Source of the DNA: a virus
Lineage: Duplodnaviria > Heunggongvirae > Uroviricota > Caudoviricetes
Direction: 5' to 3' (one strand)
DNA: 64,000 bases
IMG/VR virus record: IMGVR_UViG_3300006155_000234
The translations under genes and the position numbers were made by a program. The notes beneath the pieces are model-generated. The model was not told the DNA's origin. It did not search any database and saw nothing but the letters and a program-made list of their open reading frames with translations. Below, piece by piece: positions 27,757-64,000 of this stretch (its first letter is position 1; each line of letters opens with the position of its first letter).

Positions 27757-27761
27757 ATATA

Positions 27762-42253: not shown

Positions 42254-42281
42254 AAACAAAAACAGAGAGGTAGGAAATTTT

Positions 42282-48545: not shown

Positions 48546-48807
48546 ATATAGAATTGGTAATAAGTATAAAATAGGTGATAAATTTTATAAACTAAATAAA
48601 ACAACGAAAGAAATTGAAGAAATACAAATAAAAGATATACAATATGTATTTAGTAAAAAGATTTCTTCAAAATTAAATTATACAGAAGAAGAAATAGAAG
48701 AATTAATTGATAAAGGTGTAATAACAGATGATAAAGATGATATTAAAAATAAAGCGATAGCAGATTTAGAAAAGAGGTTTGGTATTAAATTGCAAGAAAT
48801 TAAATAG
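48538..48807 (+). CDS. hypothetical protein
   Basis: ORF. Confidence 0.45.
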   Translation: MTKYRIGNKYKIGDKFYKLNKTTKEIEEIQIKDIQYVFSKKISSKLNYTEEEIEELIDKGVITDDKDDIKNKAIADLEKRFGIKLQEIK

Positions 48808-48818
48808 GAGGTTTTATT

Positions 48819-49025
48819 ATGATTAAAATAATACATAAAATAAACCCAGATGCATTTGAAAAAGAAGTAAACTCATTTATAGAAGCAAATAATATTAATG
48901 TAATAAGTGTACAATATAGTACAGAATTACATCATTTAAGAAGTGTTAATGGATTTTCAAATGTAACGAATACAGAGTGTGTTACTGAACATTATGCAAT
49001 GATAGTTTATGATAAAATAAATTAA
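48819..49025 (+). CDS. hypothetical protein
   Basis: ORF, RBS TAGGAGG. Confidence 0.45.
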   Translation: MIKIIHKINPDAFEKEVNSFIEANNINVISVQYSTELHHLRSVNGFSNVTNTECVTEHYAMIVYDKIN

Positions 49026-49045
49026 ATGAAAGAAGGTGAATTATA

Positions 49046-49267
49046 ATGAGTAGCAAAATATGGTTAAAATTGGATGATGTATTAGAAATGGAAGATACAA
49101 GTCCTAATCAAAAAATATGGTGTTTAACAGAAGATGGAACTATTGATTTTTTAACAACAGTATCTGAAATATGTAATGTTGTTAAAGAAAATGGTAAAGA
49201 TAAAGTAAATGCAGATATTTTATATGGTTTAGTTTCTGAAAGTAAAAGTGAACAGGAGGTAAAATAA
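49046..49267 (+). CDS. hypothetical protein
   Basis: ORF, RBS GAAGGTG. Confidence 0.45.
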   Translation: MSSKIWLKLDDVLEMEDTSPNQKIWCLTEDGTIDFLTTVSEICNVVKENGKDKVNADILYGLVSESKSEQEVK

Positions 49268-49268
49268 T

Positions 49269-49748
49269 ATGGGTATGTTTGATGAAATGAGTAAAACAGT
49301 TACAGATAGAATAATAAAAGAATGTCCATTTTGCAAAAAGATTTTAGTTCCAGACATAGAAGAAGCAACTCTTTGGCAAACAAAATCATTTAAAAATTTG
49401 TTATATATTATAGATTTAAAAGATATTAATAAAGATGTATTTGAAATGCATCATATTTGTCCAAATTGTAATAAATATATGAGTGTTAATATAGATATGA
49501 TAAGTGGAGATATTAATATATTCGATAGCAACTATAATTTTTCTGTTTGTAGTAAGTTTATTGATATGAGTTTAAGAGATGATTGGAAAAATGTACAATT
49601 ATCTAAATTTGAATTAAAGAATAATACTACTTCTTTTAATCTTAAAAATTGGTTAGAATCTAATAATGTTGGGTATAATAAAATAGAAGGCAATTTATCA
49701 AAGGATTTCTATATTATACCTAAAGAAGTCTTGGAAGATTTTACATAA
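49269..49748 (+). CDS. hypothetical protein with CxxC pairs
   Basis: CPFCKK...CPNCNK. Confidence 0.5.
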   Translation: MGMFDEMSKTVTDRIIKECPFCKKILVPDIEEATLWQTKSFKNLLYIIDLKDINKDVFEMHHICPNCNKYMSVNIDMISGDINIFDSNYNFSVCSKFIDMSLRDDWKNVQLSKFELKNNTTSFNLKNWLESNNVGYNKIEGNLSKDFYIIPKEVLEDFT

Positions 49749-49767
49749 ACACTTGACAAATAAATAC

Positions 49768-49796
49768 TTGACATAATTGCAAAATTATTGTATAAT
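49768..49796 (+). promoter_or_regulatory. sigma-A-type promoter TTGACA-17-TATAAT (P10), with a second TTGACA 15 nt upstream (49753-49758)
   Basis: acTTGACAaataaatacTTGACAtaattgcaaaattattgTATAAT. Confidence 0.55.
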
Positions 49797-49837
49797 ATAG
49801 TTAGGAAAAATAGACTTATAAGGAGGTGTAATGTAAA

Positions 49838-50353
49838 ATGGCAAGAAAAGCTGGAAGACCAAAGAAAGGTGAAATAGTTAAACCAGATGACCAATATTCA
49901 AATGCAAGAACTAAAGTAGCTCACTTTGTAAGAAGAAGTGGAATAGTAAAGAAATGTGTTGTCTGTGGAAATCCAGGAGCAATTCTTCATAATAGAGAAA
50001 ATCCATATATGATAGCATTTATTTGTGATGAATGTAGAAAAGACCCTGAAAAAGAAAAGAAGGCTGAAAGTTTAAGATTTGATATTAGAAATAAAGTACC
50101 AAAAAGAGGTACACATATATTAAGAACAAGTTCAAATGAATATATTACAAAAACAGTTGAAAATTATTTAAAAGATACATTACCTATTAGGGAGTATTGT
50201 AGAAAGATTGGAATATCAAATAAACAATTTCATTCTGTTGTTGATAGATATAAAGAATTATATCCAGACCAACCTATTGATGCATTTATTAAAAGTCATA
50301 GGGACACAATACACAGACACAGAATTAAAGAAAGTAAATCAGTAGATGTATAA
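49838..50353 (+). CDS. DNA-binding protein with AT-hook (GRPKKG) and CxxC..CxxC zinc finger
   Basis: MARKAGRPKKGE...CVVCGN...CDEC; RBS AAGGAGGTG. Confidence 0.5.
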   Translation: MARKAGRPKKGEIVKPDDQYSNARTKVAHFVRRSGIVKKCVVCGNPGAILHNRENPYMIAFICDECRKDPEKEKKAESLRFDIRNKVPKRGTHILRTSSNEYITKTVENYLKDTLPIREYCRKIGISNKQFHSVVDRYKELYPDQPIDAFIKSHRDTIHRHRIKESKSVDV

Positions 50354-50364
50354 TTTAAGATAAA

Positions 50365-50400
50365 AATTGCATGATAAAAATATTATGCAATTTTTTATTT
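50365..50400 (+). terminator. rho-independent terminator
   Basis: 8-bp stem aattgcat/atgcaatt followed by T6. Confidence 0.6.
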
Positions 50401-50405
50401 TACTA

Positions 50406-50434
50406 TTGACAGATAAAAATATCTATGATAAAAT
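50406..50434 (+). promoter_or_regulatory. sigma-A-type promoter candidate TTGACA-17-TAAAAT (P11)
   Basis: tactaTTGACAgataaaaatatctatgaTAAAAT. Confidence 0.4.
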
Positions 50435-50461
50435 AGCACCATAGTAAAAATACCATATATT

Positions 50462-51310
50462 ATGGTAAAAATATTTAAGGGGAGGAATACTATTATGGAA
50501 AATAGTAAATTTTTAATAATTAGACCAAATGAGTTTAATTTTGATATTGAAGGTTATAATTATACAAAGGTGTTGGGATTAAAATGTTTTTGTGGAAATA
50601 AACAAAAATTAGTTAGACGACAACCAACAACTTGGGCATCATTAGCAAGAGAAGTTATTAACTCATTTAGCTATGAGATTGAACAAGCAACTGAAAATAA
50701 TTGGGAGGCATTCGAAACAAAATTTAATATAGCATTAGGAAATATGATATTAAGCTGGGGAGGTAAAACAAATACAAGTTTTTCAGAGAAACTATTTACG
50801 GAACCAATTCATATAAGAAGTAATGTGTATAAAAATAACCAGAATAGTATGTTAGAGATATTTAGAACACCTATGGGAGAACCAAAATATATAACAGCAG
50901 TATATAGTGGTGAGGTTGTATGGGTATTAAATGCTTTGATAACTGCATTAGAAGATTATGATGTTAGTATTGAGATAGAATATATACACAGAGAGGATTT
51001 AGCAAGGGAACTTAATATAGAGGAAGAAACAGAAAAACAATTAAGCATAGATGATATATCTAGTACAAACAAGAATACACCAGAAACAGACGAAGATATA
51101 GAAGAGATACAAGGTAATGCTACAATATATATAAGTCTTTTAAAATTAAAATTGGATGATATGTATAGACAGTATGGAATACCAGATGAAGAATATAATA
51201 AAATGAAAAGTTGGTTAGACCATATTGCAATATCAATATTAGACATGAAGGCTACTATAAGTCTGATAACAGATTTATCTTCTAAAATGAATGAAAAGTT
51301 AGGTAATTAG
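50462..51310 (+). CDS. hypothetical protein
   Basis: ORF, RBS GGGGAGG (the internal ATG at 50496 is also possible). Confidence 0.5.
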   Translation: MVKIFKGRNTIMENSKFLIIRPNEFNFDIEGYNYTKVLGLKCFCGNKQKLVRRQPTTWASLAREVINSFSYEIEQATENNWEAFETKFNIALGNMILSWGGKTNTSFSEKLFTEPIHIRSNVYKNNQNSMLEIFRTPMGEPKYITAVYSGEVVWVLNALITALEDYDVSIEIEYIHREDLARELNIEEETEKQLSIDDISSTNKNTPETDEDIEEIQGNATIYISLLKLKLDDMYRQYGIPDEEYNKMKSWLDHIAISILDMKATISLITDLSSKMNEKLGN

Positions 51311-51327
51311 TTGAATATACAAAATTG

Positions 51328-51342
51328 GTAAAATATTAATGA
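51328..51342 (+). promoter_or_regulatory. late-promoter-like motif GTAAAATATTAATGA (L7), embedded in a terminator hairpin (51333-51371)
   Basis: Exact motif; atattaatgagg/cctcattaatat stem followed by T6. Confidence 0.45.
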
Positions 51343-51393
51343 GGAAATGTAAAACCTCATTAATATTTTTTATTATGTAAAGGAGAGTGTAGA

Positions 51394-54219
51394 ATGGCAT
51401 CAGTTACAACACCAACAATAAATAAAATAATTAGATTGAATAATTATGATTTGCTAGGAACTAAATGTAATAAGTATAATATGTATATGTGCCTAGATAC
51501 ACTACAACTATGGTATGATGAATCTGATTCAAAAAGAACATTATATGGATATGTTGGAGTAGATACAGTTAATGATTTACAAAATAATATAATACCAGAA
51601 ATGGGTATTACATATTATTGTTGGGAGAGTAATTCATTGTGGCTATGGATGAATAGGTGGATTTGTATATATTCTGATAATAAGTATCCAAGTGCATACA
51701 GAACAGACCATGATTTCATAGAAGAAGTATATTTAGATGACCAAAATCCGACAATAGTAGATAATAATGGATTACTACGAGATGGTTCAGTAGTAATAAG
51801 AGATGCAAACAGAATAATCAAAGGTAGATTATATGTAAGTGATAAACATGATAATCTTGTGCTATCTTCTTATTTAGGTGGAGGGGTAAGAATACTTCCA
51901 AATGGTTCTTTTTCATCTGAAGGTGAGTTATATATAGATGACCAATCTACTGCATATATAAGAGGAGAATGGAATGTACTAAATAATGAAATATTTGTAG
52001 ATTATAATGAACGACCTTCATTAGATAATAATCCATATAAGACAGATGCACATAGATATAAAGTATGGCATGAAGGAAATTTACAATTAGAAAATTTACA
52101 ATTATCTGGAGAAGCAATATATAATAAACTTGTGCAAGGACAAGCAGATGGTACACTACCAGCTACATTTAATTTTAATGTAGATAAATTAGATGGATTA
52201 CATGCTACAGATTTTGCACTAAAATCACATGTTCATAAAGCAGCAGATATATCAGATTTTAGTACAGTTGCTAAATCAAATGCTTTACAAGAAATGATTG
52301 ATAAATTAACTAATATGGAATATAAAGGTGCAAAGATAATATGGTCAGCATCTAAAAAGAAATTTACATTGAGTACAGATAATTTTATATTAGCATTTAC
52401 AGGAGGAGCAACAGGACAAGGAACAGTTATCAATAATACAAATACAACAATACCTTTAACAATAGACCCAGATAAGCATAAGCATAAAGATATAACAGAT
52501 AGATTAGATGCATTAGAAGGAGCTGCAGGTAAAGATTTATCAAATTACTACAATAAGAAAGAAACAGAAGATTTATTAAATGATATGTTTACAACATCTC
52601 CAACTCCAGGAAAAGCATTACTTGTAGATAGTGATAAGAATTTGCCAGGAAATGCTTTAACAGCAAGTGATTTAGACCACGATACTAAACTTAAATTAGA
52701 AGGAGATATTACTGGAGAAGTTTTATTCGGTTATGATAAATTATCTTTAACAATGTCAACAGATGCTTCTAATATAGTATCAGATACACCAACTTCAGGA
52801 AAAGCATTGAAATTAGATACAGATGGAAATTTACCAACAACTGCTTATAATGCAAAAGAATTAGACCATGAGATTGCATTTGAAATAACAGGTGCAGTAA
52901 AAGGAAATGCAAAATTAGATACATCTAAAAATAGTTTTAAAATAACAACTACACTTGACGGTTCTGCAGCAGTATTAACTCCTAGTGATATTGGTGTTAA
53001 AATACCAAGTTTAGTAAACGGAATAGTTCCAGAATCTCAATTACCAGAAGGATTGACAAAAGCAGTAAGGATAATGGGAAATTGGGATGGTGGAGGAGCT
53101 CCATCAGCAACACCTAAAGAATCACAGGCATGGTTAGTTACAACAGCAAATACTTTTGGTGGAAAGAATTATAAAGTAGGAGATTGGATTTATTATTATA
53201 ATTCGAGTTGGAATAGAGCTGATTTAGGTGTAAGTGTAAAATCTGTAAATGGTAAGTCAGGAGAAAGTATTACATTAACACCTGCAGATGTAAAAGCAAT
53301 ATCAGAAGATTATATAGATTATACAATAGGTGCAGATATTCCACAAAATAAAATAGTAGTTACAGATAAAGTAGGACATATTGCAGGAGCAACAGTTGAT
53401 AAATTAACAAAAGAATTTACAGTAGGAAGTACTGATGGAGATGTTTCAATAAATGCAACAAAAAGTACAAATCTAAAAACAGATGGTACAAAGAATTTTG
53501 ATTTGACTATGGAATTTACACAAGATGGTTATGATAACATAGCAACTAAATTAAGAAGAGATATAAAAAACAATAATTCAAATGTAGCATTTAGAAAGAA
53601 TTTGAACTTTGTTGACTTTGCTATAGCAGATGATAGTGGAACGAATACAGTTACAATTAAACCTGATTATACTAAAGTTGATGAAATATTATATTTTAAT
53701 GGAACGCTTACAGATGATTTTAAGAAAAGATTAACTAATAACTATTATAATAAAAATGACAGACCTTTTTATATAGCATATAGAGATGCTAACAATAGAA
53801 TACAATTAGTTGGAATAAATGGAAGTATTGCAGACGCAGCAGATAATACAACTATTTCTATACCAACAGGAGAATATTCAACAACATTAGAAAATAGTAA
53901 AGTAGTTACTAAAACAGCAGTAGCAAGTGTAACTTTTGACGGAACAGGTAATATATCTAATTTTGCTATTACTAGAAGTACAGGAACAGAAGCCTTACCT
54001 ATTTCTGGGGGAACAATGACAGGAACAATTACTTCAAGAGCATTAACACCATCTGCAAATAATACTTATGCAATAGGAACATCTGCTGCAAGATATAGTA
54101 CTGGATATTTTACAACTACAAATACAACAAATCTGACTGTAAATGGTAGAAAAGTATTTATACAGAGTAGTACACCATCAGGAGCAGCAAATGGTGATAT
54201 ATGGATAGTAACAAAGTAG
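51394..54219 (+). CDS. tail fibre protein (large, repeat-containing)
   Basis: 941 aa, RBS AAAGGAGAG. Reiterated fibre-type segments (..SDLDHDTKLKLEGDITGEV.. / ..KELDHEIAFEITGAVKGNAKLD..); Gly/Thr/Asn-rich. Confidence 0.6.
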   Translation: MASVTTPTINKIIRLNNYDLLGTKCNKYNMYMCLDTLQLWYDESDSKRTLYGYVGVDTVNDLQNNIIPEMGITYYCWESNSLWLWMNRWICIYSDNKYPSAYRTDHDFIEEVYLDDQNPTIVDNNGLLRDGSVVIRDANRIIKGRLYVSDKHDNLVLSSYLGGGVRILPNGSFSSEGELYIDDQSTAYIRGEWNVLNNEIFVDYNERPSLDNNPYKTDAHRYKVWHEGNLQLENLQLSGEAIYNKLVQGQADGTLPATFNFNVDKLDGLHATDFALKSHVHKAADISDFSTVAKSNALQEMIDKLTNMEYKGAKIIWSASKKKFTLSTDNFILAFTGGATGQGTVINNTNTTIPLTIDPDKHKHKDITDRLDALEGAAGKDLSNYYNKKETEDLLNDMFTTSPTPGKALLVDSDKNLPGNALTASDLDHDTKLKLEGDITGEVLFGYDKLSLTMSTDASNIVSDTPTSGKALKLDTDGNLPTTAYNAKELDHEIAFEITGAVKGNAKLDTSKNSFKITTTLDGSAAVLTPSDIGVKIPSLVNGIVPESQLPEGLTKAVRIMGNWDGGGAPSATPKESQAWLVTTANTFGGKNYKVGDWIYYYNSSWNRADLGVSVKSVNGKSGESITLTPADVKAISEDYIDYTIGADIPQNKIVVTDKVGHIAGATVDKLTKEFTVGSTDGDVSINATKSTNLKTDGTKNFDLTMEFTQDGYDNIATKLRRDIKNNNSNVAFRKNLNFVDFAIADDSGTNTVTIKPDYTKVDEILYFNGTLTDDFKKRLTNNYYNKNDRPFYIAYRDANNRIQLVGINGSIADAADNTTISIPTGEYSTTLENSKVVTKTAVASVTFDGTGNISNFAITRSTGTEALPISGGTMTGTITSRALTPSANNTYAIGTSAARYSTGYFTTTNTTNLTVNGRKVFIQSSTPSGAANGDIWIVTK

Positions 54220-54231
54220 GAGGTAGATAAT

Positions 54232-54984
54232 ATGGCTTTAGAAGAGGTAACAAGTTTTGGAGCAACAGGTTATACACATTATCATAATCATGCGTCTACA
54301 ACTACTTATGATGTATCAAGTATATTAAGAATTAGAAACGGACCAGGAACTGGGTATGCTAAAGTAGGACGACACCAACCATCTGATTGGTGGTGGGTTG
54401 CTGAAAACTATGGTGGATGGTGTAGAGAGCCTAGTGCAAATAGGTGGACATCAAATGCTTTTATGTCTAATCCTAATCCAGCACAACCATCTCCAGGAGA
54501 ATTTAGAGTAAATTCATTTAAAGTAACAGCAACTAGAAGTGCTGCAAATGATAAAACTTTATCTGTAAAGTATGAGTGGTGGTGGAACAATGTAGGTGGT
54601 ACAACAGAAACTTATTATCATTGGAGAGTATATTGTTATGCAGCTAAAAATGGTGGGGAAGCACAATATAATATTCACGGAGATGCTCAAAATATAGGCA
54701 GAGATGGAAGTGGATATTTTACAGAAACATGGACTATGCAGGAAACATCAGGAAATACTACATTACATTTTGGTAACTATGGTGTATGGTACACTAGCTG
54801 GGGTGGTTATTGGAATCCTGGAGGTGGTGTAGGAAATGGATTTACATTTAATATACCAAAATATCAACCAAGCCCAGTAAAACAATTAGTAAATGGTACT
54901 TGGGAAACCATAGGATTAAAAAGTGGAAATGGACAAGATATAACAGTAAAACAATACAATGGCTCAAGTTGGATAGATTTATAG
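54232..54984 (+). CDS. tail-associated structural protein (Trp/Gly-rich)
   Basis: ORF, RBS AGGAGG, between tail genes. Confidence 0.5.
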   Translation: MALEEVTSFGATGYTHYHNHASTTTYDVSSILRIRNGPGTGYAKVGRHQPSDWWWVAENYGGWCREPSANRWTSNAFMSNPNPAQPSPGEFRVNSFKVTATRSAANDKTLSVKYEWWWNNVGGTTETYYHWRVYCYAAKNGGEAQYNIHGDAQNIGRDGSGYFTETWTMQETSGNTTLHFGNYGVWYTSWGGYWNPGGGVGNGFTFNIPKYQPSPVKQLVNGTWETIGLKSGNGQDITVKQYNGSSWIDL

Positions 54985-54991
54985 AATATGA

Positions 54992-55024
54992 AAAAGACTA
55001 CAAATAATGTAGTCTTTATTTTTG
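54992..55024 (+). terminator. rho-independent terminator
   Basis: 10-bp stem aaagactaca/tgtagtcttt followed by ATTTTT. Confidence 0.65.
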
Positions 55025-55039
55025 GTAAAATATTAATGA
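55025..55039 (+). promoter_or_regulatory. late-promoter-like motif GTAAAATATTAATGA (L8)
   Basis: Exact motif directly after the terminator. Confidence 0.45.
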
Positions 55040-55071
55040 GTAATAAGTATTATAGAAAGGAGATTATATAT

Positions 55072-57270
55072 ATGGCAGATGTTTGGTGTGATAATGGTTG
55101 GCATACTGGTGGAGCACCTAGAAGAAAAGTATCTGGAACTTTAAGTGCTAATTATTCAGGTTTAACCATAAGTGCTTCTTTCAGTGGAAATCAAGTATTA
55201 ACTGCATCAGGTCACTCTTCAATGTCAGATACAGTAAGACTTTACATAGATGGTAACCAGGTTGGCAGTACAACAGTTGCAATGGTTGGTGGTGGAATAT
55301 CTATGTCAGGTTCTTTAAATGTAGGTGCTGGAAATCATACAATTTCAGTAACTATGGAATGTCCTGATATTACAAATGGAAGACATTGTTCTGCCAATCT
55401 AAGAGGACCTGTAACTATTGGCTCTTTAACATTATATGTACCAGACCCATATTCTCCTCCTGCCTATGATATATGGAGTGCTACTCAAATAGTAAAAGTA
55501 GATAGAGATAAAGTAGATGTAAACTATAAGATAAATGGTGGTACTAATGGACTTGGTTGGGTAATAGCAAGAGTAGATGGTGTAAGAGATTTTGGTTTTG
55601 GAAATGGTAAGGGAGATTCTTTATGGGGTAGTTTCTATCCAACTTGGGGTGATGGGTTTAGACATGGAAGTTCTTATAATGTTAGGATAAGGTTTAGTGA
55701 TGGTCATGCAGAATATCAAACAGGACATAAAACATTTTATACATATCAAGAACCTACTATAACAGGTGTATCTGCAAATCCTACTGCTGTAAATGCACAA
55801 AATCAAACAATAACATTTACACAATCAGGAATTAATGATAGAGCTTGGGCAGCACTAGAACAACAATTCTACACATTAGCACATTGTTCATATAGTGGTG
55901 TAAATATAGGAAATGCTTGGACACAAGTAGGAACAGCAGGTAATAATTCTACATTTACTTTAAGTGGAGCAAATTTAAGAGGATTTGTACCAAAAGCTTA
56001 TGATAATCAAATAATAACAATGCATGTTAAAAGAAGAAATAACTCAGCAAATTGGGAAAGTGCAGAAAAGACTTGCACCTTTAAAGTAATATATAAACCA
56101 TTAAAAGGTGTAACTTGTGGTAATCTTTCATATAGAAAAAATAACTCAAGTGGAAGTGGAATAGGTAAAGACGATTTAGTAATAAATGATACCAGTTTGA
56201 CAGGAATATATTTAAGTTGGGTATATGATACAACAACAGCAGATGCTGGTTATACACAAGGATATAGAATAAGATTATATAATCAAGCAGGAACAGTAGT
56301 AAAAACATATTATACAACAAGTAAGAGTTTTGTAATACCAAAAGCAGATATACCAAAAATGCAACATACTAAAGTAGATATAACACCTTATTTTGGAAAT
56401 GACCAAGCTCAATTAGCAAATCCAGCTTATGCAAGTAATTATTGGTATTTCACATCTCCTACTCAATGTGATTTTGTTGTAATGGCTGCTAGATTAGCAA
56501 AACCATCAATAACATATCCAATAGAAGGTTCTGATTGGATAAATACAAAATTTAGAGTATGTTTTCAATTACCAGCAGACCCAGATAAAGGTTCTGAATT
56601 AGAAACATATCATTATGATGATATAGAAATAGAAGTAAATAATAAAGTATTCAGATTAACATCTGACCCAGCAGGTAAGACAGCAACAGGTACACAAGCA
56701 GCATCTATATCAAGTGCATTAGCAAGTAATTTAACATATCAAAGGAAAATGATATTTGCACCATTTAAAGCATCAGGGTTTCCTATTGCAACAACATATA
56801 GATTGAGAGTAAGAGTTAAAAAGAAATATACAGGTGATAAAAATAATTGGAGTGAATGGAGTAATGTTAGAACATTTACAATAACACCAGCATCATTTAC
56901 ACCAGTTAGAGGAGATATAATATATGCAACACATTATAATAATTCTAAAGCATTAATAAATAGAGTAAGGAATACTTATGGTGTAGTATGGAATAATCAA
57001 CCAAATAATGTAGTAAGAGGAACAACTATATTAAGAACACAATACCCTTATGCTAATTGGTATGATAGAATAGTAGCAACAAAGAAACAGGTAAATGATT
57101 ATGGTTCATTTGATAATAATGATGTTAAGTTTGACCATACAAACAATATAGTAGAGAACTTTTCTCAATATATAGAATATGTAACAGCAGACAGCAATGA
57201 AGCTAAAAGTGATGGAAGTGGTAGAAATTATATGAGGATAGTTTATGATAGATGTAATAGATTAATTTAG
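55072..57270 (+). CDS. large tail/receptor-binding structural protein
   Basis: Start moved to the ATG behind AAAGGAG; beta-rich Gly/Thr/Asn composition. Confidence 0.55.
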   Translation: MADVWCDNGWHTGGAPRRKVSGTLSANYSGLTISASFSGNQVLTASGHSSMSDTVRLYIDGNQVGSTTVAMVGGGISMSGSLNVGAGNHTISVTMECPDITNGRHCSANLRGPVTIGSLTLYVPDPYSPPAYDIWSATQIVKVDRDKVDVNYKINGGTNGLGWVIARVDGVRDFGFGNGKGDSLWGSFYPTWGDGFRHGSSYNVRIRFSDGHAEYQTGHKTFYTYQEPTITGVSANPTAVNAQNQTITFTQSGINDRAWAALEQQFYTLAHCSYSGVNIGNAWTQVGTAGNNSTFTLSGANLRGFVPKAYDNQIITMHVKRRNNSANWESAEKTCTFKVIYKPLKGVTCGNLSYRKNNSSGSGIGKDDLVINDTSLTGIYLSWVYDTTTADAGYTQGYRIRLYNQAGTVVKTYYTTSKSFVIPKADIPKMQHTKVDITPYFGNDQAQLANPAYASNYWYFTSPTQCDFVVMAARLAKPSITYPIEGSDWINTKFRVCFQLPADPDKGSELETYHYDDIEIEVNNKVFRLTSDPAGKTATGTQAASISSALASNLTYQRKMIFAPFKASGFPIATTYRLRVRVKKKYTGDKNNWSEWSNVRTFTITPASFTPVRGDIIYATHYNNSKALINRVRNTYGVVWNNQPNNVVRGTTILRTQYPYANWYDRIVATKKQVNDYGSFDNNDVKFDHTNNIVENFSQYIEYVTADSNEAKSDGSGRNYMRIVYDRCNRLI

Positions 57271-57282
57271 GAGGTTATTGAG

Positions 57283-57723
57283 ATGATGCCATTTTGTAAA
57301 AGGAATATAAATCTATCAAAGGGAAATATAACTCAAGAAATATTATATTCTACTGGTGCTGCACCTGCACAAGAGGGAAGTATATTTGTATTAGATAAAC
57401 CTATGATTGATTATGATTTTATAAGATTTGATTGGTTAGCAGCAGTAGTAGGGGATATATCAAAATCAATAAATGTATCAACTTGGTATAACCCTAGTTG
57501 GCATAGTAATTCTTTATGGCAAGATAATGAGGTAGTATTAAATGTAACACAGTTAAGAAGTAATTATGTATATTTTGCTTGTATTCAAGGAAAATGGAAT
57601 GATGAAAAAGGAAAAACAATAACTATATTATTTAATAGAAGAAAAAGAGAAGGACAAGAAATAACAGATGAGGACTTAAATCTAAATAAAATACATGCTG
57701 TTTATGGATATAAAGTTTTATAG
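57283..57723 (+). CDS. small tail-associated protein, paralog 1 of an MPFCK-family triplet
   Basis: Starts MMPFCKRN; RBS AGGAGG. Confidence 0.5.
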   Translation: MMPFCKRNINLSKGNITQEILYSTGAAPAQEGSIFVLDKPMIDYDFIRFDWLAAVVGDISKSINVSTWYNPSWHSNSLWQDNEVVLNVTQLRSNYVYFACIQGKWNDEKGKTITILFNRRKREGQEITDEDLNLNKIHAVYGYKVL

Positions 57724-57755
57724 ATACAGCAAGTCAGAGGAGGATTATAATAACT

Positions 57756-58208
57756 ATGATACCATTTTGTAAGATAGGTGATAGCAATTCTTATGAAGAA
57801 ATAGTAAAAGAGTGGACAGAAGTTGATTCTAATGGTAAAGATTTAATTGAAAAACAAAGAGCTAGAAAATATGATAATGGAGATTTAATTATAAATTGTA
57901 AATGGAATGGGTGGATTACAACAGATATGGTAACTAATGTGGGGTATAGAAGTATGTCAATAGGATTCAAGAATTTTATAGTACCCTTTAAAAGTGATAT
58001 AGATGTATTTGATAGACCACAAATATTTTGGAATATATATAATTTTGATTATAATCCATCATCTGATTTAACATATATAACACAATACTTACCACAATTT
58101 AGAAGTACACCAGAAAATCCAGGAAGAGTTGTAGTACAAAGAAATGGTCCTTTAAGCGAATATGTAAGTTGTGCCATCGGATATATGGCAATAGGAAAAT
58201 GGAAATAA
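57756..58208 (+). CDS. small tail-associated protein, paralog 2 (MIPFCK)
   Basis: Starts MIPFCKIGD; RBS GGAGGA. Confidence 0.5.
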   Translation: MIPFCKIGDSNSYEEIVKEWTEVDSNGKDLIEKQRARKYDNGDLIINCKWNGWITTDMVTNVGYRSMSIGFKNFIVPFKSDIDVFDRPQIFWNIYNFDYNPSSDLTYITQYLPQFRSTPENPGRVVVQRNGPLSEYVSCAIGYMAIGKWK

Positions 58209-58224
58209 GGAGGAATATATAATT

Positions 58225-58689
58225 ATGATACCAAATTGTAAAAACAATAATTTAGAAGAAAAATATAATAAGTTAATTGACGATTTATATTATAAACCAA
58301 ATGACTATTTGATTTCAGATAGTTATTTTGTTTCAGGATATGTTACATCTTTGAGAAAGTCAATACATATATTTATTGTTGTAGATAAAAGTATGTATAA
58401 TATAAATAATATAATTATAGAAAAATTTGGTGGAAGTATTAGACATTCTTTAGGTGGTTATATATTTGAAACTGCATACGGAGGTGCTAATCATTCTATT
58501 CTAAAAGAATCTACATTTTCAGATTATACTGCACATAAAATGAATAATCATACAATACTTGCAAAGTTTAATTTCATTTCTGAAATACCAGTGTACTATG
58601 CAAATGGTTCTCAAGTAACTAATTCTGCAATAACAAATAATTATTTAATAGGAACAGTAATAGAAGATTTAAAAATAAGATTTGAATAA
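58225..58689 (+). CDS. small tail-associated protein, paralog 3 (MIPNCK)
   Basis: Starts MIPNCKNN; RBS AAGGAGGA. Confidence 0.5.
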   Translation: MIPNCKNNNLEEKYNKLIDDLYYKPNDYLISDSYFVSGYVTSLRKSIHIFIVVDKSMYNINNIIIEKFGGSIRHSLGGYIFETAYGGANHSILKESTFSDYTAHKMNNHTILAKFNFISEIPVYYANGSQVTNSAITNNYLIGTVIEDLKIRFE

Positions 58690-58715
58690 GGGCAAATAAG
58701 CCCTTATTTATTTTG
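58688..58715 (+). terminator. rho-independent terminator
   Basis: Stem aagggc/gccctt followed by ATTTATTTT. Confidence 0.55.
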
Positions 58716-58730
58716 GTAAAATATTAATGA
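58716..58730 (+). promoter_or_regulatory. late-promoter-like motif GTAAAATATTAATGA (L9)
   Basis: Exact motif directly after the terminator. Confidence 0.45.
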
Positions 58731-58776
58731 GGTAATAAAATACATAGATTGTATATAAATTAAAGGAGGTAATCAA

Positions 58777-61332
58777 ATGGCAAAGAACCCAGTATCATAT
58801 TATGATGGAGAAAATATAACTTGTTTTCCATCATCAAATGCTAAAGATTTTGGTAAATTACATACAGAATTTAATGAAGCAAGATTTGTAACCAGAGTTG
58901 CAAAAAAGAATTTCTGTATTAAAAATCCAAGTTTTGTATTGAGTGCTGAAAATGATATAAAAACAAATAAAACTGTATTACAAATATCAGAAGGCGAGGC
59001 ATCTATTAATGGTATGGATATTATAGCATCAGTACCAATTCAAATAGACCCTCCAGCAGAGGCAGGTAAATGGTATGTTGCTTTTAAATTAGGAAGAGAT
59101 AATCTAGGAAGAGATTTTACAGTTGGAAAATATAAATTAAAAGGAAATGTACTAGGAGATTTAACAGTAGGTGTACAAAAAACATTTGAAGGAATGTATT
59201 TAACTTATTATAATGAAAGATTAGATGAGGGAAATGAAGACCCAGATATGCTTTATTTAGGTAGTATAGAATGGGATGGTAATGATTTTACAAATATAGA
59301 GGAAGACCCTCAAAAGTATTCCAGAATAGAAGCAGAAGATGTTGGATGTTATATAAAAGACCCAAAACATGCTGATGTTTATTATATGGATTTACAAAGT
59401 TGGTTATATAAAGTTCCAGACTGGTATTTCTCTAAAGAAGGGGATGTTTGTTATGGTGAAATCAATGTAGTTCCAGGAAGAGGAGCACATCCATCTCCAT
59501 ATCAAGACCCAATGCCTGGATTTATATTAAGAGCTTATGATAAGAATACTACTAAAATGGTGTTAAAAGCATCATCATTAGAAAATGCTACATTAATGAG
59601 ATATGGTGATATAAATAATGATGGTGAGATAAATGACGCTGACTTAGCATTATTGACTGATTTTGTAAATGGTGTAAAAACACCAACACCATTAGAAAAA
59701 GAACTAGCCTGTGTTAGTGGAAATAGACAAGGTGATTTAACAGAAAAAGATATAGAATTATTAAGAAATTATGTACAAGGTTCTAGACCAGATTTAGTAA
59801 AAGGCGAGAAGAAATTAGTAGGAAAAACTGGAGTTATATATGGTATAGGTGATGTAACAGAAGCAATCGAAATATATGCATCAAATTCTAAAGTAGAAAT
59901 TGATATGAACCATGCTCAAATATATTCTAATTTTCAAGATGATATATTCCATATTCATAACCCAGAAGGTATATGTATTGAATCAGGTAGTGGGGATATT
60001 AAGTTAGAAGCATATAATGATGTTTATATGAAAAGATTTGATAGTAATGCTCCAACATTAAGATTAACAGGTAATGTTTTAAGAATGACAGACCCTAATA
60101 CACCAGACTTAAAACATGAGTGGGAATTGATAAAAGATGGTACAAATCAAAAGGCACATACAACAACAGGAAAAACAATACAAGAATATGACCTAAATAA
60201 TAAATTCTATAATATACTTGCAAATGATACAATTAGGATGAATGTATATCCTCAATTCTATATGCAAAATGCAAGGAATAGATGTATAGGTACATTGTAT
60301 TTTGGACCTGATGATGGAAATGATGATAATTATTTTAAAAGAAATGAAATACAATTAGACAGTAATCAAGATGATAATGTAGATTTAAAACTAACAGATA
60401 GGACAATTTTCCTAAGAGATGAGAATGGTGGTAGTACAAATAGTTATATTAAAGTTGGTGGAACTAATGGTAATAATGGTGTAACAGCTTATTCTAATGG
60501 AAATATGGAATTGAAGAATACAACAGGAATATCTGAAATTAAGTTTACAGGAAATAGTGCAGCAAATACAGCAAGAATATGGCATGAACATAATAATAAC
60601 ATATTACACATTGATACAAACCTTCATATAAAAAATAATATAACAGCAGATGGAGATGGATATTTTAATGGTGGAGATGTTTATATCAAAAATCAGGGTG
60701 GAACATCAAACCTATATTTCACAGATGGTACTAAAACATATAAAATCTATCATTTGAATAATGAAGATAAATTACACATAAATACAAACTTAAATATGGA
60801 TAACAATAATATAGAAAATGTAAACAATATCTATGCTAATACAAGTATAAATGTAGGACCAAAAGGCTCTGACAACAAGTATCCAATAACACTAGATAAA
60901 AATGGTAATATAGATGCAAAAGGAGATATAACAGGAAAGAGAGTTTTTGGTGCTGTTTATAATGACTATGGTGAAATATTTAGAAAAGATAAGGATGAAA
61001 TTATTGAATATGGGGATATAGTTTGTTTAAGAGAAGATGGATTAGTACACAAAGTAGAAACACAAGAAGATTTATTTAATCTAATTGGAATATGTTCAAA
61101 TACAATAGGTATGTGTTTAGGTGGTGCAGAATTAGAAGAAGATGAAAAATGCCCAGTTGGTATAGTAGGTAAGATATGGGTTAAAACAGATGATATGGAT
61201 TTAAAGCCAGGAGACCATGTAAGAGCTACAAGTAATGGAACAGTAGTAAAGAATAAAGAAAAGGCATTTGAAAAGTTTGGTATAGTAATGCAAAAATATG
61301 AAAATGGAAAAGTTTTAATATTTGTTAAATAA
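58777..61332 (+). CDS. tail fibre / host-adhesion protein containing an internal dockerin module (about 59605-59781)
   Basis: 851 aa, RBS AAAGGAGG. GDINNDGEINDADLALLTDFVNG...GNRQGDLTEKDIELLRNYVQG is a duplicated Ca-binding F-hand dockerin signature; beta-rich fibre flanks. Confidence 0.6.
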   Translation: MAKNPVSYYDGENITCFPSSNAKDFGKLHTEFNEARFVTRVAKKNFCIKNPSFVLSAENDIKTNKTVLQISEGEASINGMDIIASVPIQIDPPAEAGKWYVAFKLGRDNLGRDFTVGKYKLKGNVLGDLTVGVQKTFEGMYLTYYNERLDEGNEDPDMLYLGSIEWDGNDFTNIEEDPQKYSRIEAEDVGCYIKDPKHADVYYMDLQSWLYKVPDWYFSKEGDVCYGEINVVPGRGAHPSPYQDPMPGFILRAYDKNTTKMVLKASSLENATLMRYGDINNDGEINDADLALLTDFVNGVKTPTPLEKELACVSGNRQGDLTEKDIELLRNYVQGSRPDLVKGEKKLVGKTGVIYGIGDVTEAIEIYASNSKVEIDMNHAQIYSNFQDDIFHIHNPEGICIESGSGDIKLEAYNDVYMKRFDSNAPTLRLTGNVLRMTDPNTPDLKHEWELIKDGTNQKAHTTTGKTIQEYDLNNKFYNILANDTIRMNVYPQFYMQNARNRCIGTLYFGPDDGNDDNYFKRNEIQLDSNQDDNVDLKLTDRTIFLRDENGGSTNSYIKVGGTNGNNGVTAYSNGNMELKNTTGISEIKFTGNSAANTARIWHEHNNNILHIDTNLHIKNNITADGDGYFNGGDVYIKNQGGTSNLYFTDGTKTYKIYHLNNEDKLHINTNLNMDNNNIENVNNIYANTSINVGPKGSDNKYPITLDKNGNIDAKGDITGKRVFGAVYNDYGEIFRKDKDEIIEYGDIVCLREDGLVHKVETQEDLFNLIGICSNTIGMCLGGAELEEDEKCPVGIVGKIWVKTDDMDLKPGDHVRATSNGTVVKNKEKAFEKFGIVMQKYENGKVLIFVK

Positions 61333-61343
61333 GAGGTAATATT

Positions 61344-61586
61344 ATGAATAGTATAAAGAAATGGTTAAATAGAGAAGTTACTTGGGGAATACTAATTAAA
61401 CTAATAATATGTATAAATATAATTGTATTAGGATTTTGTATTGTATTAGCTAAATCATCTGACTTAAAAGATATGGAAAGACAAAAATATATTAAAAATC
61501 TTGAGTACAGAGTTGGTGTGCAATCAAAATTATTAGACTATTTTTATACCGAAATAATAAATAACAAGATAGTAGATAATAAATAA
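61344..61586 (+). CDS. small membrane protein
   Basis: TM segment WGILIKLIICINIIVLGFCIVLA. Confidence 0.45.
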   Translation: MNSIKKWLNREVTWGILIKLIICINIIVLGFCIVLAKSSDLKDMERQKYIKNLEYRVGVQSKLLDYFYTEIINNKIVDNK

Positions 61587-61680
61587 TAGATAATAAGTAG
61601 TGGGACAGCAGTTGACTGTTTCCAAGTAATCACCCCCTGATATAAATACTTGGATTACCACTACTTTTAGTATAGAGGTA

Positions 61681-62181
61681 ATGTATATGAGTGATAATAA
61701 ATCTGTTAGAAAAAGATTAGAAAAGATTTATGGTAGGATATGTATGATAGAAGAAGCAGGAATAAGATATATACCAATAGAGAAAAGAAAAACTATTAGA
61801 GGGTATAGAAGAGAACAGGATGAGATAACATATCACCATATAAAAGAAAAACATTTAGGAGGAAAAGCAACAATAGAGAATGGAGCATTGATAAAAAGAT
61901 ATAATCATGATTGGTTACATTCATTACCAGATGAACAAAAAGAAGCTGTAAATAAAGAATTAATACATTTTAAATTAAAGATGTTGAATACATCAGAAGA
62001 TGGTATAATAGAAATAGATATTGCAAATATACCATTAGAATTTAATTTAGATGATTGTATTATAATACCTGTATATGATAATCAAAAGAAACCTAAATTT
62101 AACAGGGCAAAAGTTAAAAGAGAATTTAAAAGAAAAGTAGACGAGTATTATAATGAATTAGAGGATGAGGAAGAAAGATAA
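61681..62181 (+). CDS. HNH endonuclease
   Basis: YHHIKEKHLGGKATIENGALIKRYNHDWLH is an HNH/His-Me finger motif. Confidence 0.6.
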   Translation: MYMSDNKSVRKRLEKIYGRICMIEEAGIRYIPIEKRKTIRGYRREQDEITYHHIKEKHLGGKATIENGALIKRYNHDWLHSLPDEQKEAVNKELIHFKLKMLNTSEDGIIEIDIANIPLEFNLDDCIIIPVYDNQKKPKFNRAKVKREFKRKVDEYYNELEDEEER

Positions 62182-62255
62182 TCAGGAATTACCAGAATTG
62201 ATTTCTAGGGAATTTAATTGTAAAAGTATATAAAGTTATATCTTGGAGGATTATA

Positions 62256-62483
62256 ATGGAAAATAATACACAGATAATTGTTAATGAAATATTATCTAAA
62301 TTAAAAGATAGTGCCACTAATATAAAATATGATACAACAATGTCAGAAGAACATAAATTAGAAAGAATGAATGTATTATTAGACGTAATGCACTATACAC
62401 AAAATATAAGAGAATATAGTCAGCTAATATTAGAACATGAGAGAAAGAAAAGAAGGATAAAAGAAAGGGGAAAGAAAGTATAA
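62256..62483 (+). CDS. hypothetical protein
   Basis: ORF, RBS TGGAGGA. Confidence 0.45.
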   Translation: MENNTQIIVNEILSKLKDSATNIKYDTTMSEEHKLERMNVLLDVMHYTQNIREYSQLILEHERKKRRIKERGKKV

Positions 62484-63043
62484 TGTTATTTAATGAAGTA
62501 TTAGTCAATAGAATAAATAAAGAAGATTTTCCTGATAATACAAATAGTATTGTAATACCTTTAGACCCAAATTCAGAGTTGGCATATAATACAATTCATT
62601 TTTTTAAAAAAGACCATAGAGATGAAGGAGATATAAGACATAATATATTGAAAGTATATCAGTTATATTTAGATACACCCTTATTTGATAGTAGTATTAT
62701 ATTAGATAGAATAAATATATGTATAAAAGATGCTTGGAAAAATTATAATGATATAGGAAATAATATATGGTCACCTAGTTATAAAATTGGAAGTACATTA
62801 GATATAGCAATAGTAGAATATGAAAAGTTAAAAATGATATATAGTCAAAATGAAGTAGATGATGATTATTTAAGAAGTTACAAATTAGACTATAAGGAAA
62901 CTTTAAAAGAGTATATAGGTAGTGCTATCTTTGAATTGGAATCTAAAACAGTAATAATTGAAATGAAATATACAAAGAAACCAGCAGAAAATAAATTTAT
63001 AAAAGATATAAAAAGTTTTTATAAAGTAAAAAAAAGACTATAA
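62483..63043 (+). CDS. hypothetical protein
   Basis: ORF overlapping the upstream stop. Confidence 0.5.
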   Translation: MLFNEVLVNRINKEDFPDNTNSIVIPLDPNSELAYNTIHFFKKDHRDEGDIRHNILKVYQLYLDTPLFDSSIILDRINICIKDAWKNYNDIGNNIWSPSYKIGSTLDIAIVEYEKLKMIYSQNEVDDDYLRSYKLDYKETLKEYIGSAIFELESKTVIIEMKYTKKPAENKFIKDIKSFYKVKKRL

Positions 63044-63117
63044 TTTAACTAATGTTTATAGATTATTTTTGTTTTATATGGTAAAATGTAGATAATAGGA
63101 TAATAGGAGTAAGGTGT

Positions 63118-64000
63118 ATGATTAGAGATTTATTCAGATATAACACATTAAAATTATTTTGTTTTTTTACAATGTTAGTTTTTGCTATGCCATTAAGTGC
63201 TAGTGCAGCAACACATGATTTTAGTTTAACTGCATTTGATTGGGATGTAACTGCTAATGACTGGGAAGGAGAAGGGACCGAAGATCAAATTGAAAATGGT
63301 GGCTATTTAGAACCAGGGCAAGTATTTAAGGTTGATATTAATTATGTGCCTGGAAGTCCTACCGTAGTTTCAATGCAAATAGGTATTAAATATGACCCAA
63401 GTGTTTTAGAGGTTATTCATGATTCAGGTGAGTTATACATAGAAAATGATATGTCTACTACCTATCAAGGCGGAATTTGGCCTGCTGTTGGGACATCTGC
63501 TGCTAATAAGAAAAAAACAAATTGGACAGTAGATTATAATGATGATGCCGAAGTAAGTATGATTAAATTGTTAATATACGATTCGCAAGATAAGTCCCCA
63601 TTAGAAAATGAGGGAGTACTTTCTTCTGTATATTTTAAAGTGAAAGATGATGCTCCTGCAGGGTCAACTGTAAAATTAGATTTTGATTCATCATATACTA
63701 AAGTAGTTGGAAATCATTCTAAAACTTTATCAGGATTAGAGTTTGTTGTCTTTGGACAAATGAGTAGTGATGTTAGTTTAGATACATTAACTTTGATTGG
63801 TAGTAATGGTTTATCATATTTATTAAATCCATTATTTACTTCAGGAACTTCTGAAAGAATATTTAATACAGTAGTTCCAAATAATGTTTCAAGTGTAACT
63901 ATAAATGCTACACCAAAAGATGAAACCGCTAAAGTTTTACCTGGTGGTCTTGGAAATAAAAATTTATCTGTAGGGGACAATAGTTTTAATGTTGTTGTTC
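63118..64000 (+). CDS. secreted cohesin-module protein followed by a cadherin-like beta-sandwich domain, 3'-partial (runs off the window)
   Basis: ATG behind TAGGAGTAAGG; signal peptide FCFFTMLVFAMPLSASA. Cohesin-like segments PGQVFKVDINYVPG..MQIGIKYDPSVLEVI and GVLSSVYFKVKDDAPAGSTVKLDFD. Not in the ORF track because there is no stop in the window. Confidence 0.6.
   Translation, partial: MIRDLFRYNTLKLFCFFTMLVFAMPLSASAATHDFSLTAFDWDVTANDWEGEGTEDQIENGGYLEPGQVFKVDINYVPGSPTVVSMQIGIKYDPSVLEVIHDSGELYIENDMSTTYQGGIWPAVGTSAANKKKTNWTVDYNDDAEVSMIKLLIYDSQDKSPLENEGVLSSVYFKVKDDAPAGSTVKLDFDSSYTKVVGNHSKTLSGLEFVVFGQMSSDVSLDTLTLIGSNGLSYLLNPLFTSGTSERIFNTVVPNNVSSVTINATPKDETAKVLPGGLGNKNLSVGDNSFNVVV

Follow-up and report, generated by a model that had tools for sequence, protein, structure and literature searches.

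The window, a 64,000-nucleotide stretch of IMG/VR virus record IMGVR_UViG_3300006155_000234, contains DNA of two origins. Its first 63,014 bases derive from an uncultured, low-GC gut phage of ~220 kb with a T4-type portal, and the final 986 bases are of a different origin. The phage part includes a tail-fibre gene with an internal dockerin module, and the final part is occupied by a bacterial-type intergenic region and the start of an open reading frame (ORF) encoding a cohesin.

Table 1. Features of the dockerin-fibre gene, the junction and the cohesin ORF (positions in the window)
Feature	Position	Strand	Basis
Phage late-promoter motif GGTAAAATATTAATGA, exact match 5' of the fibre gene	58715..58730	+	motif search
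Tail fibre / receptor-binding protein, 851 aa	58777..61332	+	Pfam Dockerin_1 and Peptidase_G2/IMC; homologues
N-terminal domain, aa 1-268, probably baseplate anchor	58777..59580	+	conservation, model
Inserted segment with dockerin, aa 269-363	59581..59865	+	missing from sister fibres
Dockerin module, aa 276-333	59602..59775	+	Pfam match, PDB sequence matches, fold match
F-hand 1, DINNDGEINDAD	59608-59643	+	loop coordinates
F-hand 2, degenerate, SGNRQGDLTEKD	59716-59751	+	loop coordinates
C-terminal intramolecular chaperone domain, aa 684-787	60826..61137	+	Pfam PF11962
Phage ORF with last codons replaced at the junction (186 aa; 190 aa elsewhere)	62483..63043	+	compared assemblies
Breakpoint 63014/63015 at the centre of a perfect 8+8 inverted repeat, TATAAAAA-G-TTTTTATA	63007..63023	.	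identity with L001-L005 and L012 ends at 63014
Bacterial-type intergenic region with own promoter and ribosome-binding site	63015..63117	+	conserved upstream of orthologues in gut Bacilli metagenome-assembled genomes (MAGs)
Extended -10 element TATGGTAAAAT	63077-63087	+	conservation with orthologue upstream regions
First 294 codons of a giant surface-protein gene	63118..64000	+	Pfam, fold, orthologues
Signal peptide	63118-63207	+	visible in sequence, ..MPLSASA/AT
Cohesin	63313-63696	+	Pfam, fold
Start of first cadherin-like repeat	63829-63999	+	sub-threshold Pfam match and orthologues

The fibre gene is neighboured by large structural genes and lies behind a motif with nine sites in the window at two or fewer mismatches, compared with 0.7 expected by chance; these sites precede ORFs including those at 7406, 10445, 12663, 30535, 51394 and 58777. 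The C-terminal domain of the fibre matches Peptidase_G2/IMC (PF11962; 35.1 bits, cut-off 25) and is a chaperone of the kind typical for phage fibres. Many residues of the N-terminal domain are invariant in a comparison of 45 homologues, and its model weakly matches a phi812 baseplate protein and the N-terminal region of receptor-binding proteins from lactococcal and Leuconostoc phages, consistent with its probable role as a baseplate anchor. In its endosialidase-type C-terminal chaperone and, weakly, in its N-terminal domain, the protein resembles known phage tail fibres and spikes, from which it differs by holding a dockerin cassette at the hinge.

This cassette contains a genuine type-I-like dockerin. 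The Dockerin_1 profile scores 26.0 bits (E 1.1e-5; Pfam cut-off 22.9), and its match agrees with the position (59605-59781) at which a sequence-only reading of this DNA had placed such a module. In an AlphaFold model of residues 1-420, the dockerin forms three helices (pLDDT 86-97) that superimpose on 2ccl_B (TM 0.87, 2.3 Å) and 4uyp_B (1.5 Å) at 30-34% sequence identity, and its sequence matches in the PDB are cellulosomal dockerins. The module shares the duplicated F-hand calcium loops and three-helix fold of cellulosomal type I dockerins (PF00404), such as those of Clostridium thermocellum Xyn10B (1ohz/2ccl) and A. cellulolyticus ScaB (4uyp). In contrast to those dockerins, which are C-terminal on secreted enzymes, it is internal to a tail fibre with no enzyme attached, and in the clade of the window phage its second loop is degenerate, with S, Q and T replacing D, D/N and D. 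In a distant clade both loops are canonical (DVNRDGVIDxxD and DVNHDGVIDEKD), with a spacing of 34 residues.

About 107 homologues of the fibre were found, mostly on contigs of 200-227 kb, and the identical 851-residue protein is present on 10 contigs; none was found among 50,697 deposited phage genomes. About 75 homologue clusters, 34-100% identical and on contigs of about 200-227 kb, carry PF00404. Sister fibres of ~730 residues (e.g. P0057) align with residues 1-268 and 364-850 of the query and lack the segment between. The ~95-residue cassette thereby falls where the N-terminal anchoring domain meets the shaft and tip, with the chaperone following the tip. Its retention throughout a large phage family with contigs of 200-227 kb, together with its precise absence from sister fibres, marks it as a maintained functional module. 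Virions reportedly display accessory adhesion domains of other kinds (Ig-like, BACON and carbohydrate-binding modules), and the dockerin resembles these in being small, modular, dispensable and present only in some relatives. Dockerins also occur elsewhere among phages: a 362-residue hypothetical protein of Ruminococcus phage NatCom_28274 matches Pfam Dockerin_1 at 45.8 bits but, unlike the window fibre, is small, non-structural-looking and encoded near the genome end, and a protein of Myoviridae sp. ctCL221 in BFVD is automatically named 'Dockerin type 1'. We found no studies of either protein in the literature.

The ORF at 63118 remains open through the window end. Its cohesin (residues 66-193) scores 38.5 bits with the Pfam profile (E 1.6e-9; cut-off 24.1), so that the dockerin and the cohesin named in the sequence-only reading both exceed their Pfam thresholds, and both predicted structures agree with solved dockerins and cohesins. 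The cohesin model is moderately confident (mean pLDDT 63.9; 75-89 in the core), and its top 38 fold matches in the PDB are all cohesins (target TM up to 0.76), with a fold like that of the non-cellulosomal cohesins of the C. perfringens glycoside hydrolase complexes (2jh2, 2vo8 and 2w1n). The signal peptide proposed earlier is likewise evident at the N-terminus. The proposed cadherin-like module falls below threshold in the fragment itself (17 bits against a cut-off of 24.2), although the orthologues do contain such repeats.

These orthologues, 44-65% identical, come from MAGs labelled uncultured Firmicutes, Bacilli or Tenericutes and from Clostridium sp. CAG:433. They consist of a signal peptide, an N-terminal cohesin and then cadherin-like repeats (17-19 in one count, up to 25 in another), and of the three tested the two closer ones (L015 and L018), not L023, end in a Pfam dockerin. 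Every orthologue is 1,851-2,594 residues long, which does not fit a small secreted protein. The genes around them are of ordinary bacterial kinds, encoding an ABC permease, a PASTA kinase and more giant cadherin-like proteins, several of the last with dockerin-like ends. Like Gram-positive non-cellulosomal systems (C. perfringens; the surface scaffoldins of R. flavefaciens and R. bromii), the orthologues bear cohesins and dockerins on surface proteins free of cellulase domains; they differ in their giant size and their array of about 17 cadherin-like repeats, and in the closer orthologues a cohesin and a dockerin occupy opposite ends of the protein. We found no description in the literature of an architecture combining a cohesin, cadherin-like repeats and a dockerin.

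Sequence conservation extends into the promoter region of the cohesin gene. The region from TATGGTAAAAT to GATAATAG is conserved between the window and the sequence preceding the bacterial orthologues: positions 63052-63087 match L018 at 86% identity, and six sequences share an invariant TATGnTAAAAT. By contrast, the late-promoter variant reported previously for this ORF is not borne out, as none of the nine GGTAAAATATTAATGA sites lies upstream of 63118. The ORF is also an outlier in AT skew (-0.015, compared with +0.08 to +0.38 in 16 phage ORFs), and no relative was found in the 2.9 million viral contigs of IMG/VR. It is thus the 5' end of a host-type gene with its own promoter, and the gene is probably host-derived.

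The two parts meet at a sharp boundary. The window is 99.99-100% identical to other assemblies of the same phage over positions 445-22559, 23503-46349 and 48777-63014 (about 59 kb) and diverges from them completely from 63014/63015 onward, 103 nt upstream of the cohesin ORF, and the earlier assignment of that ORF to the phage is not confirmed. All six contigs that can be read across this position, representing six samples and three pipelines (NCBI, JGI and IMG/VR, Logan), run on into phage ORFs and the T4-type portal. One of the other assemblies is a 220,047-base NCBI contig; the coordinates imply that the window spans both of its ends with an overlap of 55 bases, as expected for a circular assembly, and within this implied closed circle there is no close relative of the window cohesin. 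The junction also replaces the end of the phage ORF at 62483. A 65%-related phage (L026) retains the canonical C-terminus KNKFYGEYNIDVES, whereas the KSFYKVKKRL ending in the window is not conserved, and the 186-residue product is itself on record nowhere.

We consider a chimeric contig a slightly better than even explanation of this junction. Several observations sit awkwardly with an artefact: foreign DNA that starts exactly at a cohesin gene beside a dockerin-bearing phage is a striking coincidence, the gene is oriented like all phage genes, and it falls between fibre and portal, an interval of differing content in relatives (L011 has an IS605 element there and L027 a methylase). In addition, the breakpoint lies at the centre of a perfect 8+8 inverted repeat, a kind of site of which the roughly 63,900 window positions include just 16 (about 1 in 4,000); random concatenation accounts for this less well than recombination or template switching does.

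The same observations would be explained if a phage subpopulation had very recently captured the host gene, in its 5' part or whole and with its native promoter, by illegitimate recombination, a scenario to which we give roughly a one-in-three standing. The inverted repeat is consistent with hairpin or short-homology joining, the site lies in a variable accessory region, and all 294 codons are open with the signal peptide, ribosome-binding site and promoter intact. Capture has to contend, however, with a backbone in which no difference from the canonical genomes was seen over 59 kb and yet a junction present in no other contig, the destruction of a conserved phage ORF end, the lack of compositional adaptation to the phage, the absence of a relative among IMG/VR phages, and the heavy load that a gene of about 6.5 kb, as in the orthologues, would impose on a phage. 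Were the cohesin-phage linkage real, as a decoy role requires, the product might, by conjecture, attach to free virions or change the cell surface during infection and so act as a decoy or in superinfection exclusion; it might alternatively stop progeny from sticking to debris.

The sequence-only proposal of a built-in cohesin-dockerin pair stands in its two domain identifications, but its assignment of both to one phage is not supported, given the junction, the bacterial orthology and the missing viral relatives. No cohesin was found up to 10 kb from the fibre gene in five lineages of related phages (L009, L011, L025, L026 and L027/L028). The dockerin family is conserved; a cohesin neighbour is not. 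Searches of the window, L001, L009, L011 and L013 with custom HMMs gave no additional cohesin or dockerin; for a divergent phage-encoded cohesin, inspection covered some 72 kb of the genome's 220 kb. We infer that the phage lineage lacks a cohesin and that the pair is therefore not a built-in coupling system. The variant in which a phage-encoded cohesin protein plugs onto the fibre as an exchangeable adaptor or decoration accordingly finds no support and is very improbable. Both domains are real, and sister phages have a fibre gene split immediately 5' of the dockerin, which would leave a free dockerin-shaft protein in need of a docking site on the virion; but the only cohesin seen forms the N-terminus of a giant host-type protein that is secreted, its Sec signal peptide is incompatible with cytoplasmic virion assembly, and it is missing from all other assemblies and every related phage examined.

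To our knowledge, the only ligands of dockerin domains are protein cohesins, which implies a protein-protein plug and not glycan binding. A dockerin that has no cohesin partner, and was recruited for mechanical reasons as a calcium-binding hinge or stabilising module or for a non-cohesin ligand, has perhaps one chance in four. Dockerin-like modules have reportedly been described outside cellulosomes with partners not identified, and the module sits at the anchor/shaft hinge. Its location near the virion-proximal end instead of the tip, and the degenerate second calcium loop in the clade of the window phage, fit such a role and also weigh against a mechanism based on host cohesins. On the other hand, the distant clade retains two canonical F-hands and the full three-helix fold down to 34% identity, and samples of the same kind contain a bacterial lineage with many surface proteins that bear matching cohesins and dockerins. 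Moreover, the positions of repeat 1 that touch cohesin in solved complexes look variable by eye in eight dockerin sequences, which would fit tracking of a partner.

As the best overall explanation we favour, with only moderate confidence, a genuine fibre dockerin that would plug into host cohesins and a host-type cohesin end that most likely reached the window through a chimeric join. The dockerin would mediate calcium-dependent adhesion: each trimeric fibre would display three copies close to the baseplate, and these may plug into the cohesins of host surface proteins like the one at the window end. Such docking could aid adsorption or positioning, while the distal tip would make the specific receptor contact. 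A dockerin within a phage tail fibre is genuinely unusual, and the docking of virions onto cohesin-bearing host surface proteins would be the most economical idea of what it is for.

The plus-strand ORF at 58777-61332 of the window encodes an 851-aa tail fibre carrying a dockerin, which is the solid finding of our analysis. Residues 276-333 score 26.0 bits against Pfam Dockerin_1 (PF00404; cut-off 22.9) in a profile-HMM comparison, the PF00404 assignment is precomputed for the fibre homologues, and a sequence search of the PDB returns cellulosomal dockerins. The AlphaFold model of residues 1-420 has a pLDDT of 86-97 across the module, places helices at residues 287-297, 305-311 and 323-333, and superimposes on the solved structures 2ccl_B, 4uyp_B and 4fl4 with TM-scores of 0.75-0.87 and rmsd of 1.5-3.5 Å. 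The fibre module thus shares with type I dockerins both an above-threshold HMM score and the three-helix fold. Type I dockerins are defined by two F-hand repeats of ~22 residues with Asp/Asn calcium ligands at loop positions 1, 3, 5, 9 and 12. Loop 1 of the fibre (DINNDGEINDAD) is a canonical calcium loop, and in loop 2 (SGNRQGDLTEKD) positions 1, 5 and 9 are occupied by S, Q and T. Both loops are canonical and lie 34 residues apart in a distant clade of the fibre family; the window's own clade has retained loop 1 and carries a degenerate loop 2. PF00404 is present in ~75 clusters of fibre homologues (34-100% identity), mostly on contigs of 196-227 kb. Sister fibres of ~730 aa align with query residues 1-268 and 364-850 and miss the stretch between; the dockerin is thus an inserted cassette, located at the hinge that joins a highly conserved N-terminal domain to the shaft.

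The remainder of the protein and its surroundings identify a phage tail fibre with a C-terminal intramolecular chaperone, encoded in a late structural gene. Residues 684-787 match the Peptidase_G2/IMC chaperone domain (PF11962) at 35.1 bits (cut-off 25), and the N-terminal domain bears a weak resemblance to the N-terminal portion of lactococcal and Leuconostoc phage receptor-binding proteins and to a phi812 baseplate protein. The gene is preceded by the phage late motif GGTAAAATATTAATGA, found at nine sites in the window, and lies among large structural ORFs in a row of plus-strand ORFs; a T4-type portal follows 6 kb downstream in other assemblies of the same phage. In three sister lineages (L025, L026 and L027) the fibre gene falls into two ORFs of 241-249 and 595-607 aa, with the break exactly at the hinge that precedes the dockerin. 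These sisters carry one additional C (CCA/CCT-C-GGA-AGA-GG, compared with CCA-GGA-AGA-GGA in the window), so that frame 0 passes through a CGG codon and meets a stop 9-10 codons further on. The +1 frame runs on into the dockerin, the downstream ORF lacks a ribosome-binding site, and the layout is common to ~12 protein clusters. The arrangement resembles a programmed +1 frameshift that has been conserved, or else a deliberate division; either would yield anchor-only and full-length products.

The three small paralogous ORFs preceding the fibre gene share the N-terminus M-[IM]-P-[FN]-C-K, match no family and are not kept in more distant relatives with a dockerin fibre. We considered them as hidden cohesins and rejected the idea, as they lack HMM support and are not conserved where the dockerin is. 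An HNH endonuclease homologue occupies the same place downstream of the fibre in relatives with 37-79% fibre identity (L009 13092-13667, L011 13545-14048 and L025 10355-10858); this conserved position suggests that the gene is fixed rather than a homing element on the move.

The window has ~27% G+C with all genes on one strand, and encodes an Amidase_2/SH3 endolysin, an RNA-repair-type fusion of kinase, phosphoesterase/phosphatase and T4-type RNA ligase domains, an NAD-dependent DNA ligase with a GIY-YIG/NUMOD3 homing-endonuclease-like ORF preceding, and a sigma-70 region-4 protein. Two Thg1-like genes occur nearby in related loci. One tRNA call, at 28155-28228, has an abnormal two-base anticodon loop assignment. 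The ORF listed mechanically as 54988-57270 has an exact late-promoter motif, at 55024-55039, within its 5' end, and its true start is probably the ATG at 55072 (MADVWC..., 732 aa, AGGAG before it), as called in L001, another assembly of the same phage. An early-promoter element of ~50-90 bases (..GAAAAAACCCTTGACATATTTTAAAACTTATAGTATAAT) is repeated across the genome.

Coordinates of features in the window and in loci compared with it
Feature	Location	Remark
RNA-repair fusion, NAD-dependent DNA ligase, GIY-YIG/NUMOD3 ORF, sigma-70 region-4 protein	together: 42225-44738, 31764-33395, 39224-40129, 30535-31428	
Eight tRNA genes, two clusters	window 27307-28332 and 39038-39197	
Repeated early-promoter element	upstream of window 4062, 28587, 33503, 38225; L001 ~14340-14400	
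Start-site region of ORF 54988-57270	window 54988-55074	
Three paralogous small ORFs, 146, 150, 154 aa	window 57283-58689	directly 5' of fibre gene
Late motif GGTAAAATATTAATGA before fibre	58715-58730	exact match
Split site in sister fibre genes	L025 7900-8003; L026 5955-6003; L027 10697-10745	window equivalent ~59470, fibre aa 232-235
HNH endonuclease ORF	window 61681-62181	just 3' of fibre
Giant surface-protein gene tandems	L015 21-15922; L018 7977-15926; L006 4349-13699	uncultured gut Bacilli MAGs

The proposed second partner lies in the ORF that starts at 63118 and is still open, after 294 codons, at the window end. Its residues 66-193 match Pfam Cohesin (PF00963) at 38.5 bits (cut-off 24.1), a sequence search of the PDB gives weak matches to scaffoldin cohesins, and a cadherin-like profile gives a sub-threshold, partial match at the window end. 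The predicted structure, a moderately confident model (mean pLDDT 63.9, core 75-89), has the nine-stranded beta-sandwich fold, and its top 38 PDB matches are all cohesins (probability 1.00, target TM up to 0.76). HMM scores, PDB sequence matches, models and fold matches therefore bear out the sequence-only reading in its calls of a dockerin in the fibre and a cohesin in this ORF, coordinates included.

The origin of the cohesin ORF is another matter. A single-sequence protein search returned only four cohesin homologues (44-47% identity), and an alignment-based genome scan was needed to reach orthologues at 58-65%. The scan yielded ten orthologues in total (44-65%), in metagenome-assembled genomes (MAGs) labelled uncultured Firmicutes, Bacilli or Tenericutes from human and mouse gut and in Clostridium sp. 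CAG:433. The ORF matches the N-terminus of each; the orthologues are 1,851-2,594 aa long and comprise a signal peptide and an N-terminal cohesin (25-31 bits) followed by 17-19 cadherin-like repeats, with a C-terminal Pfam dockerin in the two closer orthologues tested. They are flanked by unremarkable bacterial genes and by genes for additional giant cadherin-like proteins, several of which have dockerin-like sequence at the end. The homology extends upstream: the 103 bases that separate 63014/63015 from the start codon can be aligned with the regions preceding the bacterial genes. All six sequences share TATGnTAAAAT without change, and identity to the bacterial locus L018 is 86% over window 63052-63087. 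The ORF had been taken to sit behind a late-promoter variant, but GGTAAAATATTAATGA is absent before 63118 and only a TAAAAT core is common to the two; given this absence and the conservation with bacteria, the promoter is the bacterial gene's own. AT skew is -0.015 in the cohesin ORF versus +0.08 to +0.38 in 16 phage ORFs.

The same phage was located through exact look-ups of window proteins in many public assemblies, including contigs of 220,047 and 220,082 bases, and the window is 99.99-100% identical to other assemblies over 445-22559, 23503-46349 and 48777-63014. By its coordinates the window spans both termini of the NCBI contig, which overlap by 55 bases; this implies that the contig is a closed circle. 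Identity with every other assembly ends at 63014. All six contigs readable across this position (L001-L005 and L012; six samples, three pipelines) lack the cohesin and continue with one and the same sequence: the end of a 190-aa ORF, a terminator, a repeated early promoter, small ORFs and the portal. In the window the final 14 codons of that ORF are swapped for 10 unrelated ones, giving a 186-aa product; the canonical end is kept in a phage 65% related, so the window version is the disrupted one. The 186-aa product is absent from a collection of 153 billion gene positions, and exact-DNA searches of IMG/VR, JGI metagenomes and GTDB genomes found neither the cohesin ORF, nor the junction, nor a source for the last 986 bases. 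The phage side of the junction has no match in JGI metagenomes and matches one IMG/VR contig, which has the canonical junction.

The claim that one phage genome encodes both partners is thus not supported, the segment being orthologous, promoter included, to bacterial chromosomal genes and missing from the six other contigs readable across 63014. We consider it somewhat better than an even chance that the join is chimeric or otherwise artefactual. At least three other assemblies break at an early-promoter copy 85-176 bases past the canonical junction, which marks the spot as an assembly trouble zone. A genuine and very recent capture of the cohesin gene is a reading to which we give roughly one chance in three. 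It would spare us the coincidence of a cohesin landing beside a dockerin phage in the orientation of the phage genes and within an interval variable among relatives; moreover, the breakpoint is the exact centre of a perfect 8+8 inverted repeat, such centres occurring at 16 of ~63,900 positions, which resembles hairpin or short-homology joining rather than blind concatenation. Capture has to contend, however, with the absence of the junction from all other assemblies of an otherwise identical clone and with the destroyed end of a conserved ORF. IMG/VR holds no relative of the cohesin, no cohesin lies near the fibre in the related phages examined, the 226 kb relatives included, and custom HMMs, run on 72 kb of this phage and on the related loci read, yielded no additional cohesin or dockerin. 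Artefact or capture, the phage lineage probably carries no cohesin either way, and the proposed phage-borne cohesin-dockerin pair is unproven. A prophage or attachment-site reading of the junction was discarded because no integrase domain is recorded nearby, the other assemblies are circular, and a sigma-like factor and tRNAs are encoded by the phage itself. Nor does a cohesin gene between fibre and portal account for the extra ~6.5 kb of the 226 kb relatives.

The bacterial loci hold tandem genes for giant surface proteins of gut Bacilli with 17-25 cadherin-like repeats, some of which combine an N-terminal cohesin and a C-terminal dockerin in one chain, and small stand-alone cohesin proteins are encoded near them. 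Such chains could link head to tail into fibres. We found no description of a cohesin/cadherin-like-repeat/dockerin architecture in the literature; the closer bacterial proteins (cohesin, ~17 cadherin-like repeats, dockerin) are undescribed candidate self-linking surface fibres of uncultured gut Bacilli.

When the region, the fibre and the cohesin fragment were compared with 50,697 deposited phages, neither megablast nor tblastn gave a match; PHROGs has no family for the fibre, the cohesin or their neighbours, and full-text literature searches turned up no account of a phage fibre or receptor-binding protein that contains a dockerin. Phage records do include dockerins that have gone unnoticed. 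Ruminococcus phage NatCom_28274 (PV036439.1, deposited, human gut) encodes a 362-aa 'hypothetical protein' (L033 538-1626) with a strongly scoring C-terminal dockerin (45.8 bits) and a weak match to the starch-binding CBM26, which may plug into the host amylosome; BFVD lists a protein of Myoviridae sp. ctCL221 automatically named 'Dockerin type 1'.

To our knowledge, cohesins are the only ligands of dockerins. Since no phage cohesin was found and a gut bacterial lineage of matching base composition bears cohesins on giant surface proteins, we regard as most economical a model in which the fibre dockerins would plug, calcium-dependently, into cohesins on the host surface, presumably as an accessory adhesion or positioning step; binding, host and role in infection are all inferred. 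Rival accounts take the dockerin as a partner-less calcium-binding hinge module or as a device for coupling within the virion. The fuller scenario, in which gut phages of ~200-227 kb dock into the cohesin tips of giant cadherin-like surface fibrils of uncultured host Bacilli and one subpopulation has just captured a host cohesin gene with its promoter as a decoy or exclusion factor, seems to us unlikely. The apparent phage-borne pair hangs on a single junction, and the ORF should not be listed in databases as a phage cohesin until that junction has been verified.

Cohesin-dockerin pairs rank among the tightest known protein connectors and have so far been regarded as bacterial tools for assembling surface enzymes. 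The retention of a dockerin in the tail fibre across a family of large gut phages suggests a new adsorption principle; if the docking model is true, these phages have taken their protein-protein docking from the code by which the host assembles its surface. The principle would also offer a route to predicting the hosts of uncultured jumbo phages, which would be sought among genomes rich in matching cohesins.
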